DNA of 64,000 nucleotides from Hormiphora californensis (taxonomy: Eukaryota > Animalia > Ctenophora), in contig CM035358.1 of NCBI GenBank assembly GCA_020137815.1, forward strand, positions 6,200,001 through 6,264,000, written 5' to 3'. A program made the position numbers and the translations under genes. Positions 13,548-52,685 of this stretch are shown in pieces. Below the pieces are notes generated by a model. That model was not told the DNA's origin and made no database searches. It saw only the letters and a program-made list of their open reading frames with translations. Positions within the stretch are counted from its first letter, which is position 1; each line of letters begins with the position of its first letter.

Positions 13548-33313
<19,766 letters not shown>

Positions 33314-40225: not shown

Positions 40226-42467
40226 TTTTCATCTTGCGAGTCGAGTGTGAGATGTTAGATAAGTATTAACAAGATAGACAACGATATAATGGTACTAAAT
40301 CAAATAAATTGATAGAAGCTTTCGAGATCACTGTGTATCACGTCTTCAGCTATGATAAGTAGTTAAGTTGGAATGTCAAAAGCTGGTTAGCAAGTGTCAT
40401 GTGATTGGGAATTAGCTAACTCTAAGCTATGTGAGAAGTATACTGACAGCTAGATCGTATGCATCTCACATTACATTATGACCAAGCCTTGATCCTGTTG
40501 GCAGTGACAATGTCACTGACATGTGAAACGGTAGGGCAGGGAAACACAGCATTATGAATACATAATGCAATAATTCTTGTTTTTGGAATTTCCCAAAAAA
40601 AACTGGGTGGTTAAAGGCCTTTTTACAGGTGCGTGCTGCCAAAAAAGTATCCTGTAGGTCGTACTGAAATGGCTCTCTGCCCTAATCACAATACCAATTT
40701 AAGGCTCAACTGTTATGGCTAATTCAAAATCTATCTGACAAGAAATGTCAAGCGGCTTGAGTCAAGCCCTAACCCCAACCCAATACTGTATGCTGAAACT
40801 AAACACCCAGATTTTAACGTTTCTCGAAAAGTTTGGGCGCCGTTACAATCTGGTTTTTACAGGCCTGCCAAGAAAGTAACTGGGCCTGCACTAAAGTAGC
40901 TCTCCTCAGATCGCTCTCTAGCATCTAACCACTCAACCGATTTGGGTAATCCAAAGACGAATCAGCACAGCAGACAGCTGACACGGGAAACTCAAAACAA
41001 AATAATACTACACAACCCACTAGGGACCTCAGGGGTGAAACGGTGCAGAGCAGCCACTAGACACGGTGAGGTGTGAATCAAGTCATCATATGGTCCCTGT
41101 GTGGGTTGTGCAGAAAAATAACTTAATCAAACGCCTACACACTAAAAAATTGATAAATAATATAAAAATAGTCTCTCATCACTAATGACATTTCAAAGGT
41201 TGAAGTCAAAATTGTCCAGTGTTGGTGTTTTTATGGGTACCCTACAACCTCTCAAGCTCCTCAAAGTTGACCTAAGGATGGAGAATCTCAACTTTTGCTT
41301 TATTGTAGCCATTACCTCTGGATATCTTTCTCCGTGTTTTTCCTCAATCCTTGAGGCAGCTTTCTTCAGGGTTTTCATGAATTCGTCTCCGAGTCCTCCT
41401 GTAGTTGACATTATCAGAGGGGTGAATGAGCCCCCTTCCACCATCTGTACTCTCCTCATGTAGCTTCTCTTCTTCCTCTGTTCATGGTCTCTGTACAGAG
41501 ATGTTGGAGGTGTTGAGAGATATGATGCAGAATTGGCATGGACAACTCTGACATCGAAGAAGTTCAGTTGTTCAGGCTGCCACAATCCGGTTCCGACAAT
41601 GTCCATACGGGCATCCCTATCTTGATTTGTCCAATGTGGGAGCCTTTCGGCAAAGTCATCACAAGGTTGCAGGAGTCGTTCAGTCTCTACTCCTTTCACA
41701 CCTGCATAGCTGAGAATTTCAGCTGTAGCGTCTCGGATCTTGTCGTGTCTCATGATAGTGTATCCTCCTTTGGCACAACTGAGGGCGTGGTTTACATCGT
41801 TGTCCTTACCGCATGCACATCGGAGGTTAAGATCAGGGAAGTGAAGTCCGAATCTTAGGCGCATAGCGTCATGGAATTCCTGCTTCGTGAGTTCGTAACC
41901 AAGACTATCGATTGGCCGAGCTGTTAGCCATGAGGATGCTCCTGGTTCAGTGTTGAGAGCTAGAAGACGCTGGCCGTAACTATCCATCATTGTGTGGATG
42001 ATCTTGAAGTTTGCTTGATGTCTGGTTTTGGTGGCTAGCTCACACTCTGTAATCTTCTCAGAAACGGCTTTGTCTAGTCGAGCGACAACTGCATGATCAT
42101 GGATTTCTTCAGACAGTAAGTGGTTGACCAACGGTTCTGTGCAAAATCTGGAGTGGGTGTAAGCATGGTTCGCAGTTTCGACAGGGTTGTCCAAACCTAG
42201 TCCGCCCATTCTGACCGGTAGAGCCAACAAGCAGCGTTGCTGATCATTTACGTGGGTGCCTAGTAGAACCGGGATCAGCTCGTGTCTAATAATGTCCTCC
42301 AGGGGCTTGAAGAGCGTTCCAATGTCTGGAACTGTTCTCTGAACATATCCCCATTTGAACTTCAGATTTCTTGTGAAATTGGAGTAGGCTAGATGAGGAT
42401 GGGTGCGACCAATGCTAACCAGATTTTTCAACGAGTCAGCCCAACCTGCGACTAGATCCATAATATA

Positions 42468-42498
42468 TTCAACACTACTTTAAACAAACTAATTTGAG
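42468..42498 (+). other. Spliced-leader-like sequence (5'-truncated) at 5' end of element A
   Basis: TTCAACACTACTTTAAACAAACTAATTTGAG, one mismatch to the copy at 52686-52716; ORF1 ATG 9 nt downstream. Confidence 0.75.
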
Positions 42499-42507
42499 CA
42501 TGACTCA

Positions 42508-43737
42508 ATGACCCCCCTCGGAACGCTGACGATGAACACGACTAAGCAGTGCAAGGAGGAGGAGAACAAGCGGAATGAGGCTGTTATGGAGAAGCTGAGA
42601 AACCATGAGGACGCCAGCAACGATGTTAAACGCGTGCTAAAGGCCTACATCGTCAAGGTCAAACACGATACTAACCTGAAAAATCTGGCCAAAATCAACG
42701 ACGATGCCCTTCATGATGTGGCAGAGTTTCTCGGGGGGAAACCCCTTAACGACTCCGGGCAGAAAACGTACAGGACCCGAACCAGCTTCATAGATTGGAT
42801 AATCATGGCCATAGAAGGTCTGTTTCAACAAGACTGCAGTGCGTGTAAAGGGTCATATACCCTAGAGAGAGGAGCTAAAGCCAAGTTTACCTGTGCCAGC
42901 TGTGGAGGAGGATCCCATGACTGTGAACAGGTGATGAGTCATCCTGCATTGAACGTCCCCGGCTTTGTGTGGGTGTGCGACGGATGCACCAAGAAGTTTA
43001 GTCTGGAGACTCTTTCAGGCACGGATGATGTAGATGAACCGCCTCAGAGCGGCGCCAGCGAGAGAAAATTCAGTTTCCCATCTACTCAAGCAGCAACCAC
43101 CACTGACAAAGAAGACGAGCCGGAGGAGAAGAAGGAGGCAATCAAACCTACAGAGGTATGTTCTTTCTATCTCAGGAGGAAATGTCGGCATGGGAGAGAC
43201 GGCACCAAGAAGTGGAAGGGGGCAGAATGCCCGAAAAAACACCCGGAAATCTGTAGAAAATACAGTAACTATGGGACCATGAGACGCGGGGGTTGTAATC
43301 GAGGGGCAGAGTGCAGATTCTACCATGTACCATTGTGCCGTTCATCGGAAACTCGCCATGAGTGCTTGAAGGAAGACTGCCAACACCAACACCTAAAGAA
43401 TACCAGAAGATCCAACGACGAAGGATGGAAGATAGCCGGGCAACGGAATCGCAACACTTCCGGCCAGTACCAGCCTAAAAACTGGACTCGATCACGATCT
43501 AGTTCCAGAACCAGGAACGCCAGCAACATTTCCAGTGCTGACAGGAATAGGTCCAGGGAACCATCCAGGGAGGACACAAACAAGAGTAAAGAGGAGGATT
43601 TTTTCGAGCGCCTCCTAGAGAGGCTAACAATCTCTCTCCCAGGGCTTGTGGCGTCCGAGATACACAAACACAGGCCAGTCTCGAACATATCGTGGAACAT
43701 TCCACCCGGCACGCAATTGACACAGGGTGCACGCTAA
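42508..43737 (+). CDS. LINE A ORF1 (PHD-like finger + CCCH-type zinc fingers)
   Basis: 409 aa; CSAC..CASC..HDC..WVCDGC followed by repeated C-x-C-x-C-x-H clusters and an RS-rich tail. Confidence 0.85.
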   Translation: MTPLGTLTMNTTKQCKEEENKRNEAVMEKLRNHEDASNDVKRVLKAYIVKVKHDTNLKNLAKINDDALHDVAEFLGGKPLNDSGQKTYRTRTSFIDWIIMAIEGLFQQDCSACKGSYTLERGAKAKFTCASCGGGSHDCEQVMSHPALNVPGFVWVCDGCTKKFSLETLSGTDDVDEPPQSGASERKFSFPSTQAATTTDKEDEPEEKKEAIKPTEVCSFYLRRKCRHGRDGTKKWKGAECPKKHPEICRKYSNYGTMRRGGCNRGAECRFYHVPLCRSSETRHECLKEDCQHQHLKNTRRSNDEGWKIAGQRNRNTSGQYQPKNWTRSRSSSRTRNASNISSADRNRSREPSREDTNKSKEEDFFERLLERLTISLPGLVASEIHKHRPVSNISWNIPPGTQLTQGAR

Positions 43738-46700
43738 ACAAAGGCACCAAAGGAGAAGTATGCGGATCAAAGCTTCTCCTTATTAACGGCAGGAGTCTCA
43801 ACCCTGCCGCCACTAGCAAAACAAAGTGGAAAATGAGATACCTTGCGGACCAAATCACCAGCTCTGATCTACCTGTAATGGCAGTGGGCCTAACTGAGAC
43901 TTGGTGGGATGGAAGAGTGGAGGACGCACAAGTAAAGATACCGGGATACAGTCTGTGGCGAGCAGATAGGGAGACCAGGACCGGGGGAGGCTGTGCTCTG
44001 TTCGTTCATGGCTCGCTGATAGTCACTGATAAAACTTCTTGGGGAGACAACTTCAACAACATGGTTGCTGTGTACATTGCTAGGTGTCACACCATAGTTG
44101 CCTCAATCTACCGCACCAGTGATTACCAAGACCTGCTTGAGACACTACAGGCCTTTATAAACAAGCACTCCCACGAAAGAACTGTCCCTGATCTCTACAT
44201 CATGGGGGACCTAAACCTACCACACCACAATTGGGATCTTTTAACCCTGGGGGGAGACAGAGAAGACAGAATATCAGCAGCAACAGAGAACTTTACACAA
44301 CAAAATTTCCTATGTCAAGTTGTCGACGATGCAACAAGAGAGTCCAGTTTGCTTGATGTAATTTTGACTAATAGACCGGACTACTTTATCAAAACTGAGG
44401 TTGAAGCAACCATTAGTATGTCAGATCACAAAACAGTAGCCGGTGTACTAGGGTATAACATGACATGCACTCCACACTTTAAGAAGAAAAAACTAGATCG
44501 TTGGTCATTCGAAGGAGTGTGTTATCACAAATCGGATATGAATAAACTGAGGGACTTGCTTAGTGATATTGATTGGGATGTTCTTTGGGAATTGTGTGAA
44601 TCACTTGAAAACATTGATAGGCTCACAGCATTCACAAACCTACTAACCCTCACTGTCCTTCAGGTCACATGCTCCAGTGCCCCACTGAAGAAAATCCAGG
44701 ACTACTCCCATCTTGTTAAGGACAATGCACTAACCAAGTTGAAATCAAAGAGGAGGAGGATCGACAGACGAATAAAGAAGCTACAGAAGAAGGGGGCCGG
44801 CCAGACCAGAGTTGCTAAACTAGAAGCCCTTGCAGCTGAGATCATCACCAATATCAAGGAACACATTACCCGAAGTATAAATGCTGAGGAAGACAAAGCA
44901 GTGGCACAGATCAAGAAGAATCCCAAAGCTTTTTACTCTTTTGCGAAGAGGAAAAGAAAAGTACAGTCGACAGTTGGACCATTACTGTCACAGAGTGGAG
45001 AGCTGACGGATGATCCACGGAGGAAAGCTGAAATACTCCAGGACCAGTATGTTAAAGTTTTCAGTGACCCCTCCCTAGTCAACGTAGAAAACGCCCTAAT
45101 GGATATCGAAGAGAGGAAAGCCGAGTTGACAGATATTGAACTCTCCCCTGCAATCATCGAAGGGGCCTTGAAGGAGCTAAACCCACATTCCGCAGCACCC
45201 AAAGGCGATATTCCATCACTGATTCTCCACGAGGCCAGGGATAAACTTTGCTATCCACTATGGATATTGTGGAACCAATCCTTTCACCGCGGGTTCATTC
45301 CCGCCGAACTGAAGAAACAACAAATTGCACCCATTTTCAAGAAGGGCAATAAGAGTCTGCCAGAGAACTACCGCCCAGTGGCACTGACGAGCCACGTCAC
45401 TAAAACCTTCGAACGAGTGGTAAGAAGTCAACTAGCGGACTTTGTGGAAAAGGCAGGGATCATAAACGAGGAGCAGCATGGATTCCGGTCGGGTAGAAGC
45501 TGTCTGACGCAACTACTCAACCATTACGATGCAATCCTAGAGGATCTGAACAATGGCCACGAAGTAGATGTGGCCTATATCGATTTTGCTAAAGCATTCG
45601 ATAAAGTCGATATTCGAATCCTACTGGGCAAGCTGCAAAGATACGGCATACGAGGAAAACTGTTGAACTGGATCGAGGCCTTCCTTACAGGTAGAGCACA
45701 GACGGTAGTGACGGAGGGCTACTGCTCCAGACCAGAATATGTCATCAGTAGTGTGATCCAGGGCTCAGTGCTGGGTCCACTTCTGTTTATTATCTATGTT
45801 AGTGATTTGGCCGCTTGCACGCTGGGTGGTACACTAACGTTTGCAGACGACACGAAGAGCAGGCAATCGATCGAACAAGCAGAGGACATGAAATCACTTC
45901 AGGGAGACCTCGACAGAATCGCCGATTGGTCAAAGAAGAACAACATGCTTCTACATGAGGACAAGTTCGAAATTCTCAACTACACCCTGAACAAAACAAA
46001 GCTTCTACGAGTTCTTCCCTTCAATGTGGAAAACTATCGATACTACAATACAAATGGTGAGGACATTAGCCCTGCACACTGTGTGAAAGACCTGGGTATC
46101 CACATGACCAATGACGCATCGTGGACAACACACATCGGTATCATCACCAGAGAAGCCAAAAGATTAGCTGGATGGGTCCTAGGAGTGTTCAGAGACAGAT
46201 CTACAGCAACCATGGTTACCTTACTGAAATCGCTCATTCGGCCGAAGCTAGAATACTGCTCGCCACTATGGTCGCCATGCCAAACTGGCGAGATTGCAAA
46301 GATCGAGGGAATCCAACGTTTCTTCACACGGAGAATCACAGACTGTGAAGGCATGAATTACTGGGAACGATTAGCCCACCTCAGGATACTTTCTTTGCAG
46401 AGAAGACGGGAAAGATACATGATCATACATATGTGGAAGATATACAAGGGGCTAGCACCTAATAGCACGAACATATCCTTCTACGTCCACCATCGACACG
46501 GTCCGAAAGCAGTTGTCCCTCGGATCATCACATCGGCACAGAAATCAGTCCAGACGCTACGGGATGCATCATTCGGAGTTAGAGCGGTTCAACTCTTTAA
46601 CAGGATGCCCGAGGAAGTACGGCTGGCAACATCAATCGAGAACCTAAAAGTCACACTTGGAGACTTCCTTGCTACCATACCAGACTTTCCACCTGTCAGA

Positions 46701-46757
46701 GGATACTCGAGCCCTAGAGATAACTCCCTTGTTGCCCTGCTCACTGAGGGGAAGTAG
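43590..46757 (+). CDS. LINE A ORF2 (APE endonuclease + reverse transcriptase), intact
   Basis: LLINGRSL, LTETW, DR..GGG.AL, GDLN, LDVILTN and SDH (APE); ENYRPVALTS, QHGFR, DFAKAFDKV, IQGSVLGPLLF, FADD and KDLG (RT). The frame is open from 43590, overlapping ORF1 in the -1 frame. Confidence 0.95.
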   Translation, partial: RGGFFRAPPREANNLSPRACGVRDTQTQASLEHIVEHSTRHAIDTGCTLNKGTKGEVCGSKLLLINGRSLNPAATSKTKWKMRYLADQITSSDLPVMAVGLTETWWDGRVEDAQVKIPGYSLWRADRETRTGGGCALFVHGSLIVTDKTSWGDNFNNMVAVYIARCHTIVASIYRTSDYQDLLETLQAFINKHSHERTVPDLYIMGDLNLPHHNWDLLTLGGDREDRISAATENFTQQNFLCQVVDDATRESSLLDVILTNRPDYFIKTEVEATISMSDHKTVAGVLGYNMTCTPHFKKKKLDRWSFEGVCYHKSDMNKLRDLLSDIDWDVLWELCESLENIDRLTAFTNLLTLTVLQVTCSSAPLKKIQDYSHLVKDNALTKLKSKRRRIDRRIKKLQKKGAGQTRVAKLEALAAEIITNIKEHITRSINAEEDKAVAQIKKNPKAFYSFAKRKRKVQSTVGPLLSQSGELTDDPRRKAEILQDQYVKVFSDPSLVNVENALMDIEERKAELTDIELSPAIIEGALKELNPHSAAPKGDIPSLILHEARDKLCYPLWILWNQSFHRGFIPAELKKQQIAPIFKKGNKSLPENYRPVALTSHVTKTFERVVRSQLADFVEKAGIINEEQHGFRSGRSCLTQLLNHYDAILEDLNNGHEVDVAYIDFAKAFDKVDIRILLGKLQRYGIRGKLLNWIEAFLTGRAQTVVTEGYCSRPEYVISSVIQGSVLGPLLFIIYVSDLAACTLGGTLTFADDTKSRQSIEQAEDMKSLQGDLDRIADWSKKNNMLLHEDKFEILNYTLNKTKLLRVLPFNVENYRYYNTNGEDISPAHCVKDLGIHMTNDASWTTHIGIITREAKRLAGWVLGVFRDRSTATMVTLLKSLIRPKLEYCSPLWSPCQTGEIAKIEGIQRFFTRRITDCEGMNYWERLAHLRILSLQRRRERYMIIHMWKIYKGLAPNSTNISFYVHHRHGPKAVVPRIITSAQKSVQTLRDASFGVRAVQLFNRMPEEVRLATSIENLKVTLGDFLATIPDFPPVRGYSSPRDNSLVALLTEGK

Positions 46758-47954
46758 TTCACTCATATAGGGAATATCATTTTATCACGCGGAAGCTCTG
46801 CTGAGTGCGTTGTATTCATTTGTTATGTATACTAAAACTTATTTGTAATCTTGTAATCTTGTAATCTTGTAATATTCATTTCTGAATTCTTCTGATCCGA
46901 TCACAGCTCCCAAGTGTCTGGCTCCTCTCTTGGTGACAGTGACTCCCGTATCCTTGAAAAGGTTGATCGCCTCATCGTAGTATTCCGGTTTTACTATTAG
47001 GATACTCTTCCCTGGGTTGACGTGGTATCCAAATGACGCACCGTTGATGTATACGTCCTCGTACCAGTCAAGTAGATTGGAAATAGTTCCGGCCGCATTG
47101 CCGTCATCGGCAAACCAAGCTTGAAAGGTATCATGTTGCTCTACTAGGTCGATTAGAGGAGCGATACCTACACAGTATAATCCCATAGAAGAGGGACATC
47201 CCTGGGTGGCACCTTCTTCACTGCTCAGGATATTACCTCCAGTGTACAAGTCGCGAGGGGAACCATAGAGGTTGGTGAAAAATGTGTTCATGATGGGGCA
47301 GACCACACTGGAGTGATATAAAGCCAATTTGCGATTTAACGAGTTGAAGGCATTGCGGGCGTCTAGGAGTAGTACTCCCTGGCATTCCGGGCTTGAAAAC
47401 TTGTCGTTGAGCGCATGTATAGCTGCCTCACAGCCACCATTTGTCCCTGCGGCAAGCTGGAACTTCCCTGCCGTCACCTGAATTTCTTGCTTTTGACTTC
47501 TCATAACTGATTTGGCCAAAACTCTCCTCCATTTATTTATTTATTAAATCTATATAATAATTTACACAGTTTGATGTATAAAATTATCAGCCCCTTTTTG
47601 TGGGCAAAAAACGGTTGATCAAAGATATGAGTCCATTTAAGAGTCCAGTTTATAAAGATAGTCTATGAAAAGTTTATCGCTCCTTTCCGTATCCGAAATT
47701 GTCTTTCGGGATTCGATTCCCTTAACTCCTTCAATGTAAGGTGAAGTTCCCTCCTCTCCGTTCTCTCTACGAGTGACATATCTCTTGACAAGTATACACC
47801 GCAGTACGATTCGGACTGTTTCAACTGCCTAGCCTTCTGGAGAAGGCTCAGCAGCATTTCTCTACTCTGTAGCTTCACGATCACGGGTCTCTCCCTTCCT
47901 TCCCGTTTCAAACCCACCCTTTTAGCTACAACAATAGGTTTCTCATCAAGTTTA

Positions 47955-50900
47955 CAAGTTTACAAGTTTACAAGTTTACAATTAAAGTTTTATTTATAAC
48001 GAAACAGGCCTTCCCTGAATGGGTCCACCTAAATAAATATTAAGTTAAAAACTATCCCTTCACACTCACACTCATCAGCACAGCACAGCACATTGAGGCG
48101 AAAGGTCATTTGGAAGTGGCGGGTACCCTCTGACTGGAGGACGATCATGAAATCCTGTCAAGTAATTGCCCAATGCTGATTTGAACTGATTCAAGCTCAC
48201 ACATGAATTGACAGCAGCTGGTAGAGTGTTCCATAAATGAGCTGCTCTAGGACCGAATGAGCAATGAAATTGATTAGCTCGTTTGGTTTCTGCTCTGTAG
48301 GGGTAAGGTGGAGGGACTATCCGCGTACCCAATCTAGCGTGCTGTTGAATTACTAGGTGGGCGGAATTCGGTACAAAACCCTGAATCGTCTTCCACACAT
48401 GGATCAGCATATAGCGCTGCCTCCGACGCTGAAGGGACATAAGATTGAGCAATTTCAGCCTATCCCAATAGTCATGACCCTTCATACCATCAAGACGTCT
48501 GGTGAAACATCTCTGTACATTCTCAATAGCCTTGATATCACTGGCCTTGGATGGGCTCCAGACAAGGCAACAATACTCTAGTATAGGCCTGACCAAAGAC
48601 TTAAAGAGTTGCAACATGACGTCTGGTGAACGGTCTCTAAACACACTGAATATCCAACCACACAAAAGGGAAGCCTTCCTCACAATAGTAGAGATATGTT
48701 TCGACCATGTACCGTCCGCAGACATCTGAACACCTAGGTCGCGGACATCCGGATCTGGCATCAACTGAACCCCTGACCCGGTCGTGTATGAGAACACCTC
48801 TGCTGAGAAAGGAAACTCACTGAAGATCGCCGATTTATTCAGTCTATAACTCAGGAGTTGGAATTTGTTCTCATGTAACTTCATGTTATTCATCCTTGCC
48901 CACTCAGTAACTCTCAAAAGATCGTTCTGAAGGCAGGCCTGAGTAGTCATATCCGATATAGCTTTCATCAACTTAGTGTCATCGGCAAAAGTGAGACACA
49001 TGCTACCATCCAGCACTGATTCCAGGTCCAGGATATAGATGAGAAAAAGTAGTGGTCCAAGCACACTGCCCTGGGCAACCCCACTTAGTACGTCAACCCA
49101 GAGTGACCTAACTCCATCCACCATTACACACTGTTTCCTGCTCAGGATCCACGCACTGATCCATTTATGAAGTTGTCCTCCAATACCGTACCTTTTCAGC
49201 TTGGCCAGCAAAACATTGATATCAACTGAGTCGAAGGCCTTGCTAAAATCCAAATAAATTATGTCAACTTCCTGGCCATTGCATAATTCGTTTAAAATGT
49301 AGTCAACGTGGGTAAGAAGCTGAGACATGGTGCTGCGCCCAGTCCTAAATCCATGCTGTGTCTCACTCTGTAAGCCCATTTCGTCCAAGTAGTCAACTAT
49401 CCGCTTCCTAACCAGCCGCTCAAACACCTTAGATAGGTGGCTCGTTATAGACACAGGGCGATAATTCTCAGGTTTCGATTTAGCCCCCTTTTTGAACAGC
49501 GGTGTAATGAACTGTTGCTTCAGGCAACTAGGGACAGTACCGTCTTCAAATGATCTGTTCCACAGCATCCAAATCGGGTATGACAAGCTACTGCTACACT
49601 GTTTCAGAACACAGGAAGGAATGCAGTCTGGAGGGGAGGCTGAGAATGGTTTCAGTTCCCCCAACGCAGTCTGAATACAATTCTGCGAGAACTCCAAACT
49701 TGTCAGGATCTCACCGAGGTCCTCAACGTTACCAGCTGCCTCTGTGGGGTCGATAGCGGAAGGGTCGCTAAAAACGCTGGAAAACTGGTGTTGGAGTAGT
49801 CCAGCCTTCTCTTGAGGATTCACAGTTAGTGAACCATCTTCACGCTCAAGGGGTGCAACTGAAGATCTGACTTTAGATTTCTTCTTGACATGTGAATAAA
49901 AGAACTTCGGGTTCTCTTTAATTACGTCAACAGCCTTCCTCTCTGCCTTCTTTTCCCTTGATATCAAGTGTTCCTTTATCCTGCCGATTATATAGTCAAT
50001 CTGTGATTTCCGTTCTCGCGTTTAAACAATTTACGTCTCCTGCTGGTCAAGTGCTTCAGCTCTTTGTCAACAAAATCCTTCCTGATTTTCTTCAACCGAC
50101 AGTGTTTCTTAACAACTTTGAAAACTTTATCACGCATGGCCTCCACAAAAAGGGAACCATCCTCATCTCCCAGTTCTTCACATTCCGTCAACATTTGATC
50201 CCAATCAGTAGCCGCTAGTTCCGCATCAATACTAGTGAAGTCGGCCGACTGAAGATCCAATTGCCGATAACCCTCAAGTGTACTGGGAAGAAATAAACTT
50301 TTAGGACCGAGAGGGTTGAAAGAGAGTTCACATGATACCCAGGAATGATCCGAGATGCCCCCATCCGTAATAGAGATATCGCTGAAATATTCCGGGCGGT
50401 TAGTAAACACAAGGTCTAACGTGTTGTTGCCTCTTGTAGGGCCCTCGACAACTTGGGATAGAAAGTTTGCGTCCATGAAATCAGCAACAACATTGTAGTT
50501 AGGCTGGTCAACCGGAACAGACGACCCATCAGCCCACTGAAAAAGAGGAAGATTAAAGTCCCCAGAAACTATGACCTCTGGTAATCGATCATCACTGTGA
50601 TTATCAATAAAAGTCTGGAGATTGTCCATCAGCTTTTGAAAATCTAACACACTTGACTCAGAGCGATACACAACAGCATAAATAGTGTTTATTTGTTCAA
50701 CATAAACAGCACACATATTGTTATTCGCACTCGCAAAACATGTAGTATCAGAAACAGCCAGCGAACATTGAACATATAAGGCACAGCCACCGCCCACTCG
50801 GTTTTCTCTATCACTTCTATACACGTCATACCCTGGTATCTGAACCTGAGCATCAGAATGATAGCCTTTAAACCAAGTCTCAGTTACTGCAATGGTTACT

Positions 50901-51962
50901 ATGGGAGTTTTCTCTTGCTTAACATAGTCTCTAATAAGCCCAAGTTTCCAACATGTATCACCTGCTGGACTTAAACTTCTCCCATTTAACAGTAAAAGTT
51001 TGCTCGTAGGCGAGACAGGCCCTAACGTTCCCTCCACGTTCGTCTTGGATCCAGTCTCACGTCTAGCATTTCTCTCATTCTCGCGTCCATTCTCGCGTCC
51101 ATCGCCCCCAAGAGTCTTTCGAAAAAAGCCTGCTCATCAAATGGGGCTGGCTCCCGTGATGCATTGGAGCTCGGTTGCTGGGACCGTGGTATATTAGTGT
51201 TCCTATCCGTAGTGTTTGTAGCATAGGGTGTCATGGTTTTTGGCCTGCTCACGTCGGTTGCCTGGGTGTTATTTGGCTTCGTGTTGGCAGGAGCACGACG
51301 TGTGTTCCTCAGATGCTGAAAACGACAGTCAGTCTTGAGACATTGATGACTGAACTGCGAGGAACGACACAGGGGTGGGTGGAAATAGCGACATTCCTTA
51401 CCCAGCTGACATCCGTACTTCTTCATAGATCCATGTGAGCAGTACTTCCGGCACAGTGGAGGGTGTGACTTCTGGCAAGCAACTCCATTGACATTCTTCG
51501 TTCCAGCACGACCATGCTTACAGCGATGTTGAAGGTATTGCTGGCACACTGGGATTGGTTTGTCTGCCTCACTATCGATCTTTTTCTCTGTTTCCTTGGG
51601 TAGTTCTTTCTCCTTCCTGTCCCCGGCTGTGGTCACCTCCCCTGGTTTCTCGCCAACCTCAGCCGTCGACAAGAAACTGAACTTCCTCCTCAAACTGTCA
51701 TCATTTGCCTCACTAGCTGCACTTTTAGGAGGACTGGCAAACTCCCCGTTTTCGCCAGAGAAAGTTTCCAGTCTGTTCTTTTTCATGCAGCCTGAGCAAA
51801 TCCAAACAAAACCAGGGACACTACACTTGGGCTGCTCCTGGATTAGGTGGCAGTTGTGGCTACCACCACCACAGCTACTGCAGTTGAACCTGGATTTTTC
51901 TCCTCGTTTCATTGTGTAATCCAACTCACAGGTCTCGCAAAACTGAGGGAAGAGACCCTCGA
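47955..51962 (-). mobile_element. 5'-truncated CR1-group LINE (element C) inserted in element B
   Basis: Starts within ORF1 at AIEGLF, homologous to element A ORF1 (MAIEGLF). PHD/CCCH region, ORF2 APE-RT, and tail (TTGTAAAC)n at ~47955-47982. Confidence 0.9.
48075..51127 (-). pseudogene. LINE C ORF2 (APE + RT) broken by a frameshifting deletion near 50020
   Basis: ORFs 51037-49988 (APE: VTETW, GDFN, LDL, SDH) and 49967-48075 (RT: ENYRPVS, QHGFR, DFSKAFD, QGSVLGPLLF, FADD). The segment aligned to element A around RRRKLFKR/ERKSQID is shorter and out of frame. Confidence 0.85.
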
Positions 51963-52685
51963 TAGCCAAAACGTTCTCTATCTCACATTTCAACACAGAT
52001 TCAGATTCCGCCTCAACTTCCGGTAGACCAAACACCATCAGATTTTTGGATCTGTCTGGATCTGGACTCGAATCAACTTTTTTGCCATGAGCTTTCCCTT
52101 CATCTTTCTTGATATTTTTCGGTGCAAGAGCAGACCTACAATTCTGCGTCAAGACAGTTGAGAAAGAGCGCAGATCTTTCTGCACTGTTTCGGTTACTCG
52201 ATGTAGTTGAGTGTCCTGAAGCTCAATGACCTGCTCTTGTAACCTAATAGTCTTTCTCAACAGGTCATCCATCTCAACTCTCAATATATCCTCTTTTTTC
52301 TGCAACTCCAAACTCTTTCTCAACAGTTCATCTCTTTCTTCCTTTAATTCCAACTCAGGCGACTTCTCGACGTTGAAACGATGTTGGAAGTACTTTAGAA
52401 GTGGCAAGGTCGACATAAATACATCTTCTAATACAGATGCCAAATCACGTTTCGTGTGGGATGAGTGGATATTGAAAGATGTCGGTATTTCCCTGATATC
52501 CTCAGGGCTACTCCCTAACTTTCTGGCTAAGTCCGGTGAAGGAATCCCTGCATACTTGACCATGGTCAGGATCCGGCTCGCATACCAATCCAAATCAGCC
52601 TGAGTCAGCTCCTCTTGACGTACTGGAATAACTGTCATATCGTACGGTCTGCCCATAGGGGCTGTTACACCACCATATCTACCTG

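Follow-up and report, generated by a model that had tools for sequence, protein, structure and literature searches.

A candidate −1 frameshift site at the AUG-less ORF1/ORF2 junction of two LINEs in the ctenophore Hormiphora californensis

In the textbook view, long interspersed nuclear elements (LINEs) encode two separately translated proteins; only in a very few elements (human L1 and SART1), to our knowledge, is it understood how the second one, encoded by open reading frame 2 (ORF2), is produced. The stretch of DNA analyzed here comprises 64,000 nucleotides (nt) of the genome of the ctenophore Hormiphora californensis (GenBank assembly GCA_020137815.1, contig CM035358.1, positions 6,200,001 to 6,264,000; hereafter “the window,” in whose own numbering positions are given). 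It holds two convergent retrotransposons that lack long terminal repeats (non-LTR elements), called element A (+ strand) and element C (− strand). Their layout raises a question: how would an ORF2 be translated that lies in the −1 frame of ORF1 and has no AUG ahead of its endonuclease? The best single explanation, in our judgement an evenly poised one, would be a −1 ribosomal frameshift at the heptamer U_UUU_UUC that yields an ORF1-ORF2 fusion protein.

The junction of ORF1 and ORF2 in elements A and C

The original prediction, made from the letters of the window alone, had placed a slippery heptamer at the point where the ORF2 frame opens in both elements. Coordinates and frames were re-derived, and this placement held. 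In element A, the −1 frame is closed by a TAA and then remains open past GAT TTT TTC into ORF2; in element C, TGA TGA stands just upstream of GCT TTT TTC, and the −1 frame is again open from there on. The features of the two junctions are as follows.

Element A
42508-43737, + strand: ORF1, 409 residues from the first ATG (42508); stop TAA at 43735-43737
43587-43589, + strand: last stop (TAA) in the −1 frame ahead of ORF2
43599-43605, + strand: slippery heptamer T_TTT_TTC, the predicted −1 shift site; ORF1 codons GAT TTT TTC, in X_XXY_YYZ phase
43590-43737, + strand: overlap of ORF1 and ORF2, 148 nt; no stop in the −1 frame, three in the +1 frame
43590-46757, + strand: ORF2 frame, 1055 codons, intact; apurinic/apyrimidinic-type (APE) endonuclease, then reverse transcriptase (RT)

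Element C
51022-52656, − strand: ORF1, with candidate ATG codons at 52656 and 52638; stop TAG at 51024-51022
51134-51139, − strand: last stops (TGA TGA) in the −1 frame ahead of ORF2; frame open from 51133
51121-51127, − strand: slippery heptamer T_TTT_TTC, the predicted −1 shift site; ORF1 codons GCT TTT TTC, in phase
51022-51133, − strand: overlap of ORF1 and ORF2, 112 nt; no stop in the −1 frame, three in the +1 frame
48075-51133, − strand: ORF2, in two frames (51133-49988 and 50021-48075)

The full ORF1 frames span 42493-43737 in A (415 codons) and 52686-51022 in C (555 codons). The ORF2 copy of C is damaged, with a break of the frame near 49988-50021. Within the overlap of C there is also a perfect 12-nt tandem duplication (2.2 copies; 51076-51102, − strand), which repeats the peptide MDAR in ORF1; because 12 nt is a multiple of three, both frames of the overlap stay open despite it.

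The absence of a usable start codon was a further claim of the original prediction, which had put the conserved beginning of the endonuclease upstream of the first ATG of ORF2. This proved correct for both elements. In A, the peptide SKLLLINGRSL is encoded at 43767-43799, and the first ATG in the ORF2 frame, at 43833 (residue 82), lies inside the endonuclease. From 43590 to 43770 of this element there is a single ATG in any frame (43760), and it is out of frame. In C, SKLLLLNGRSL is encoded at 51004-50972 and the first ATG of the ORF2 frame is found at 50716, which corresponds to residue 140. A profile of the ORF2 N-terminus matched structures of human L1 ORF2p (E = 5e-31), profile position 37 corresponding to residue 37-38, whereas a search of the PDB with the same N-terminus as a single sequence returned no match. 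By that register, LLL(I/L)NGRSL would fall at the beginning of the nuclease fold, and a protein started at the first ATG would lack that part. The Asn of LNGRS is presumably the catalytic Asn (strand) of L1.

Under the proposed frameshift, expression would run as follows. Heptamers of the sequence U_UUU_UUC are known to be shift-competent, and in tandem slippage both tRNA-Phe molecules would re-pair on UUU UUU. Most ribosomes would complete ORF1 and thereby make the ORF1 protein, including its conserved tail. A small fraction would slip back one base on U_UUU_UUC, read an unconserved linker of 41 residues in C or 58 in A (73 in L001, a metagenome relative described below), and continue into the endonuclease and RT. 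The fusion would trade the conserved C-terminal tail of ORF1, about 35-56 residues, for the linker and the enzyme. Little or no downstream structure would be needed. Because no strong stimulator is present, efficiency would be low, which may suit an enzyme wanted in trace amounts.

Recurrence of the site and the question of chance

A metagenome scan produced 208 pattern matches, which reduced to two loci, and only one of them, L001, reached the junction. Further DNA of the family was found in 0 of 78 and 0 of 38 viral contigs and in 0 of 47 prokaryote genome contigs (ORF1 profile). The ORF1 of L001 is 70% identical to that of A and carries GAT TTT TTC in phase. Its −1 frame is closed by a TAG, not homologous to the TAA of A, four codons upstream of the heptamer; the overlap measures 181 nt, and no ATG precedes the endonuclease. 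The heptamer is therefore kept, in phase, in all three DNA sequences compared (A, C and L001), where it sits 2-4 codons past the opening of the −1 frame. The stops that close this frame upstream are not homologous to one another (TAA, TGA TGA and TAG, respectively). The codon before TTT TTC varies between A (GAT) and C (GCT), yet its T is retained. In none of the three does an ORF2-frame ATG lie ahead of the endonuclease or a −1 stop intervene between the heptamer and ORF2, and ORF1 stops 35-56 codons downstream of the site.

Conservation around the heptamer is also visible at the nucleotide level:

43594-43625, + strand: nucleotide island at the heptamer of A, 90% identical to L001; a 5-bp hairpin, GCCTC (43610-43614)/GAGGC (43620-43624), lies inside it

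Over 43589-43628, A and L001 are 90% identical, against 30-70% in the surrounding region. Diverged Logan contigs from two organisms (labelled A and B) could be aligned only around 43579-43643, and among the contig differences listed there is no difference or indel in 43588-43616. For element C, a 56-nt contig (51098-51153) is common to variant contigs that are 5-10% diverged on either side of it. Two assemblies agree on the run of six T residues (T6), as do contigs from several sequencing runs, in which both families are multi-copy; neither T-run has an indel in any contig, and this speaks against a homopolymer error. A single contig, from an oligo-dT RNA library (run X11), crosses 43540-43727 unspliced and reads T6 at the site. 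In cover, runs X11 and X12 had one contig each on A; X14 and X11 had none on the junction of C, from which nothing is concluded. The RNA contig of X11 is otherwise identical to the element but has a 6-nt insertion behind 43587, which preserves both frames and the −1 stop.

At the protein level, the original prediction had singled out the peptide FFERLL, and the ORF1 alignment of A and C bore this out: the peptide is shared although its surroundings have diverged. All aligned ORF1 proteins continue for 35-56 further residues past this motif, and within lineages this tail is conserved, which implies that ORF1 protein made without a shift has a functional C-terminus. Beyond FFRAPP, A, C and L001 show no conservation of the peptide that the −1 frame encodes over the overlap, as would be expected of a linker, whereas the tail in the ORF1 frame is conserved among ORF1 relatives.

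Could such an arrangement have come about by chance? The heptamer TTTTTTC is the sole in-phase XXXYYYZ (Y = A/T) in the entire ORF1 of either element (415 codons in A, 555 in C), and the overlaps of A, C and L001 hold no second in-phase XXXYYYZ. The overlaps were then scrutinized in a test in which the ORF1 amino-acid sequence was held fixed and synonymous codons were resampled from the element's own usage. Stop codons, observed and expected, were counted as follows.

A: −1 frame of the overlap, 0 observed, 2.5 expected (P = 0.059); +1 frame of the overlap, 3 observed, 2.4 expected; −1 frame of upstream ORF1, 26 observed, 27.6 expected
C: −1 frame of the overlap, 0 observed, 2.2 expected (P = 0.067); +1 frame of the overlap, 3 observed, 1.6 expected; −1 frame of upstream ORF1, 37 observed, 48.5 expected
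L001: −1 frame of the overlap, 0 observed, 4.2 expected (P = 0.006); +1 frame of the overlap, 4 observed, 4.3 expected; −1 frame of upstream ORF1, 25 observed, 33.5 expected

These counts suggest that the −1 frame has been kept open across the overlap and that the +1 frame has not, a signal stronger than the placement of the heptamer and the stop. We are moderately confident, on sequence comparison, that the arrangement is more than chance.

Evidence against a frameshift, and other explanations

A number of observations weigh against the frameshift, and they are of three kinds. The statistical ones concern the heptamer and the open frame. With x-F-F held fixed and each element's codon usage resampled, the heptamer arises about 22% of the time, and the conservation of F-F could reflect the needs of the protein alone. 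Because −1 stops are so frequent in ORF1 (one every ~14-15 codons), a stop at most four codons upstream of the heptamer is unremarkable and would be expected about a quarter of the time. Elsewhere in the ORF1s there are −1 gaps of 50, 40 and 69 codons that are likewise free of stops. Taken one element at a time, the open-frame statistics are modest, and the relatedness of A and L001 means that their results are not independent. Upstream −1 stops in C and L001 are overpredicted by about 25% under the null model, so the true P values are somewhat weaker than those given above. The differences listed for the diverged contigs also fall short of proving that the heptamer is invariant among them.

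The second kind comes from relatives, whose alignment had been proposed as a check in the original prediction. Its outcome was divided: at the level of DNA, L001 keeps the heptamer and has no −1 stop before ORF2, whereas the proteins vary at the site. A search with the ORF1 of A found 13 relatives. Among the 13 aligned ORF1 proteins that cover the site (A and C included), it reads F-F in seven and F-L in six (P0009, P0010, P0012, P0013, P0014 and P0016, which were read as protein only); P0013 is a near relative of C. In two relatives, P0027 and P0170 (the latter 60% identical to A), ORF2 begins with an ATG about 60 codons upstream of the endonuclease. An AUG-less ORF2 is thus not universal, as some lineages carry a start codon in the overlap. 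An ATG would occur by chance in roughly 60% of stretches of 60 random codons, so that translation from an own start would be neither required nor excluded by these cases.

The third kind is the lack of a downstream signal. Folds of the RNA 3′ of the heptamer, a check likewise suggested at the outset, were no better than those of shuffled sequences in A (z = −0.04 and 0.04) and in C (z = −0.69 and −1.12); for L001, z was −2.56 over 95 nt and −0.85 over 55 nt. No conserved downstream structure was found for A, C and L001, the consensus fold reaching only −2.8 kcal/mol in a model of pseudoknot-free structures. A stable conserved stem-loop or pseudoknot 5-9 nt downstream, which belongs to the canonical −1 signal, was not found. 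A 5-bp hairpin, GCCUC-N5-GAGGC, encoded by R-L-L-E-R, is common to A and L001; it is short, begins only 4 nt past the site, and is missing in C. From these results, the site is probably heptamer-only or weakly stimulated.

Several candidate signals were rejected in the course of this analysis. The sequences AGAGAG and CTCTCT, put forward as a possible stimulator in A, are indeed present (43617-43622 and 43632-43637), but they do not occur in L001 and the fold is no better than shuffles; a role as a conserved stimulator was rejected. Pairing of the 55 nt after the heptamer with the 3′ untranslated region or tail was also rejected, since the duplex energies lay within those of shuffles (fractions 0.6 and 0.48); this, too, counts with the lack of a downstream signal. 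Inspection by eye of the linker peptides disclosed no 2A-like NPGP.

What else could account for these junctions? ORF2 might be translated separately, by termination-linked reinitiation or by non-AUG initiation near the ORF1 stop, the heptamer then being a by-product of F-F; we regard this as unlikely, though as an alternative to be taken seriously. Both AUG-independent translation of L1 ORF2 and UAAUG coupling in SART1 are known. The distances would permit it, with only 10 codons (A) or 6 codons (C) from the ORF1 stop to the start of the endonuclease, and both elements have an ACG, a near-cognate start codon, in the ORF2 frame, immediately ahead of the ORF1 stop or overlapping it (overlap offsets 132 and 99). 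The F-L found in six of 13 relatives and the failure of the folding and pairing analyses to detect a stimulator favor it as well, and L1 ORF2 is expressed without bypassing according to a 2016 recoding review. However, no ATG accompanies the ORF1 stop, either at it or close by (TAAACA in A, TAGGGC in C, TAAACG in L001), so an overlap of stop and start of the SART1 type is absent, and the ACG is not present in L001, which reads AGA TAA there. Reinitiation also gives no reason for the 38-61 codons of open −1 frame upstream of the ORF1 stop, in which 2.2-4.2 stops are expected.

The same fusion could in principle be made by another route, either by an RNA polymerase that stutters on T6 and adds a U or by a ribosomal shift elsewhere in the overlap, which we consider improbable. 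One extra U in the homopolymer would bring ORF2 into frame with ORF1, so that the protein made would be the same, and an open −1 frame is compatible with any point of entry in the overlap. On the other hand, T6 is short for polymerase slippage; the RNA-library contig reads T6, and contigs of every run are free of indels at the site, though contigs drop rare variants. A shift elsewhere would have to do without an alternative in-phase XXXYYYZ, since the three overlaps lack one. Finally, the overlap might be an accident without function, in decaying copies or through homopolymer errors of assembly. The broken ORF2 of C and per-element open-frame P values of only about 0.06 lend themselves to such an account, to which we would give very little credence: A is intact in its ORF1, its 1055-codon ORF2 and its tail repeat, both families are multi-copy in the runs, and one frame layout is common to A, C, L001 and the contigs that independent runs supplied, the T-run being free of indels throughout.

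The elements, their relatives and comparable systems

The ORF2 proteins of A and C have Pfam matches to Exo_endo_phos_2, Exo_endo_phos and RVT_1, which makes both APE-type LINEs; the RT block of A reads YIDFAKAFDKV ... FADDTK. The ORF1 of A is rich in Cys and His, with fingers of the Cys-Cys-Cys-His (CCCH) type (zf-CCCH, E = 9e-4, below the Pfam cut-off). Identity between the two elements is 44.7% over 300 residues of ORF1 and 38-47% in ORF2; by this measure they are to be regarded as old relatives, not recent copies. Both end 3′ in tandem repeats of 8 nt:

46843-46873, + strand: 3′ tail of A, octamer repeat (TTGTAATC), 3.9 copies
47947-47981, − strand: 3′ tail of C, octamer repeat, CAAGTTTA on the + strand, 4.4 copies

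Such 3′ ends are a hallmark of CR1 elements. From these tails and a resemblance in RT motifs, rather than from a phylogeny, A and C look CR1-like. For both proteins, the relatives that carry a species name are ctenophore sequences (a model from Mnemiopsis leidyi and models from Pleurobrachia bachei), and the runs containing related sequence include marine and aquatic samples.

A search for longer proteins in which ORF1 and ORF2 are joined returned one, P0169, and it is without ORF2. This Pleurobrachia bachei model of 1112 residues has a Tudor domain (PF00567) followed by the C-terminal half of the family ORF1, including EDFFERLL and the tail; it may be either a chimeric gene model or a domesticated or inserted ORF1. 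In P0039 (a Mnemiopsis gene model) and P0130 (from a 1015-nt contig), ORF1-like sequence is in frame with the endonuclease. These fusions may be artefacts of the gene model or of the individual copy, and they were not used as evidence.

Three other parts of the window touch on these elements. On the strand opposite to A, an open frame of 428 codons without a Pfam match (41193-42479, − strand) ends 14 nt before the ORF1 frame of A. Between the tails of A and C, an open frame of 233 codons (46842-47540, − strand) matches RVT_1 just under the Pfam cut-off (E = 1.7e-6, 28.4 bits) and is probably a fragment of a third retroelement. Farther away, 15656-15925 (+ strand) encodes a stretch with 49% identity to residues 135-223 of the C ORF1, an N-terminal, coiled-coil-like part. 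Near it there is no ORF2 match, and it gives only a weak match to the ATG16 coiled coil; it may be a lone piece of ORF1 or else a host gene whose coiled coil is related.

More distant LINE junctions were obtained by scanning prokaryote genome contigs with an endonuclease profile. Seventeen contigs, presumably eukaryotic contaminants, bear LINEs; 15 were analyzed, with L014 (585 nt) and L016 (858 nt) omitted. In four of the 15 (L003, L007, L009 and L010), an ORF1-sized frame abuts ORF2. At the junction of L003 (1063-1114), ORF2 is AUG-less and opens in the −1 frame (first M at 1582, endonuclease at ~1096), and an in-phase A_AAA_AAC (1069-1075) stands two codons past the −1 opening, with a second heptamer, C_CCA_AAA, at 1084. 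In L007 and L010, ORF1 and an AUG-less ORF2 share one frame with a single UGA between them (UGA CUA at 1475-1480 and UGA CAA at 1701-1706, respectively); these junctions look like stop-codon readthrough. In L009, by contrast, the −1 frame of ORF2 has an ATG five codons past its opening and no heptamer. In this small sample, then, AUG-less junctions coincide with recoding-type signals (L003, L007 and L010 versus L009), and therefore fusion-type expression may be common in a broad group of LINEs.

The nearest functional parallel to the proposed frameshift is the Gag-Pol of retroviruses and LTR elements. The related heptamer U_UUU_UUA is used by human immunodeficiency virus type 1 and for the alphavirus TF protein. 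As in A and C, an X_XXY_YYZ lies in phase within an overlap, the polymerase ORF is in the −1 frame without a start of its own, and the predicted product is a fusion of structural protein and enzyme at a low ratio. Unlike Gag-Pol, A and C are non-LTR elements with no protease to free the enzyme and no conserved stem-loop or pseudoknot 5-9 nt downstream. The overlap is also long and the site falls right at its beginning, and for this reason the fusion would lose the conserved ORF1 tail. Of the Gag-Pol-like fusion that the original prediction envisaged, the heptamer, its phase, the AUG-less ORF2, the overlap, the recurrence in L001, the apparent protection of the −1 frame and the layout of L003 lend support; the stimulator and a consensus structure do not. 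According to the 2016 recoding review, pol is in the −1 frame in 28 of 51 animal LTR elements surveyed, many of them with classical heptamers.

A precedent among LINEs is provided by TRE5-A and TRE3-A of Dictyostelium, which need a −1 frameshift for ORF2 according to the accessible passages of PMC5911963. Like A and C, they are APE-type LINEs with two ORFs. They belong to another clade and another host, and in those passages no canonical heptamer or conservation of one is stated for them; A and C differ from them by their CCCH-type ORF1 and octamer-repeat tails. In view of these elements, the premise of the original prediction that most LINEs reinitiate is wider than could be documented.

Human L1 and Bombyx SART1 share with A and C a bicistronic LINE RNA and a low level of ORF2 made without conventional scanning to an AUG. 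However, L1 has a spacer between its ORFs and SART1 has an overlapping UAAUG, whereas A, C and L001 have an overlap of 112-181 nt, no ATG at the ORF1 stop, and a −1 frame free of stops far upstream. CR1/L2-like LINEs resemble A and C in an ORF2 with APE and RT and in 3′ ends of 8-nt repeats. They differ in ORF1, which in A and C is rich in Cys and His and has CCCH-like fingers in place of an esterase, and in the position of U_UUU_UUC, 35-56 codons before the ORF1 stop and not beside it. A survey of CR1 elements (PMC13343379) contains none of the words frameshift, slippery and overlap. Within the accessible part of the 2016 recoding review, HeT-A, TART and L1 are the only non-LTR elements to be mentioned. 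Our full-text literature searches, whose scope did not extend to older subscription papers, yielded reviews and unrelated papers, and no slippery heptamer was reported there for any non-LTR element.

What would these findings mean for such elements? It is a tentative proposal, and one that we hold with some doubt, that LINEs of the ctenophore, CR1-like type make their endonuclease and RT solely as an ORF1-ORF2 fusion, by a slip that is independent of structure and occurs on the earliest codons of the overlap at which it could, and, taken with the A_AAA_AAC of L003 and the in-frame UGA of L007 and L010, that recoding in the manner of Gag-Pol, rather than separate initiation of ORF2, may be ordinary in a large and ancient branch of LINEs. 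If a canonical heptamer is indeed conserved where an AUG-less ORF2 opens in the −1 frame, a fusion protein would follow, and this would revise views of the dosage of ORF2, of its loading onto the RNA that encodes it (cis preference), and of the relation of LINEs to the Gag-Pol logic of retroviruses.

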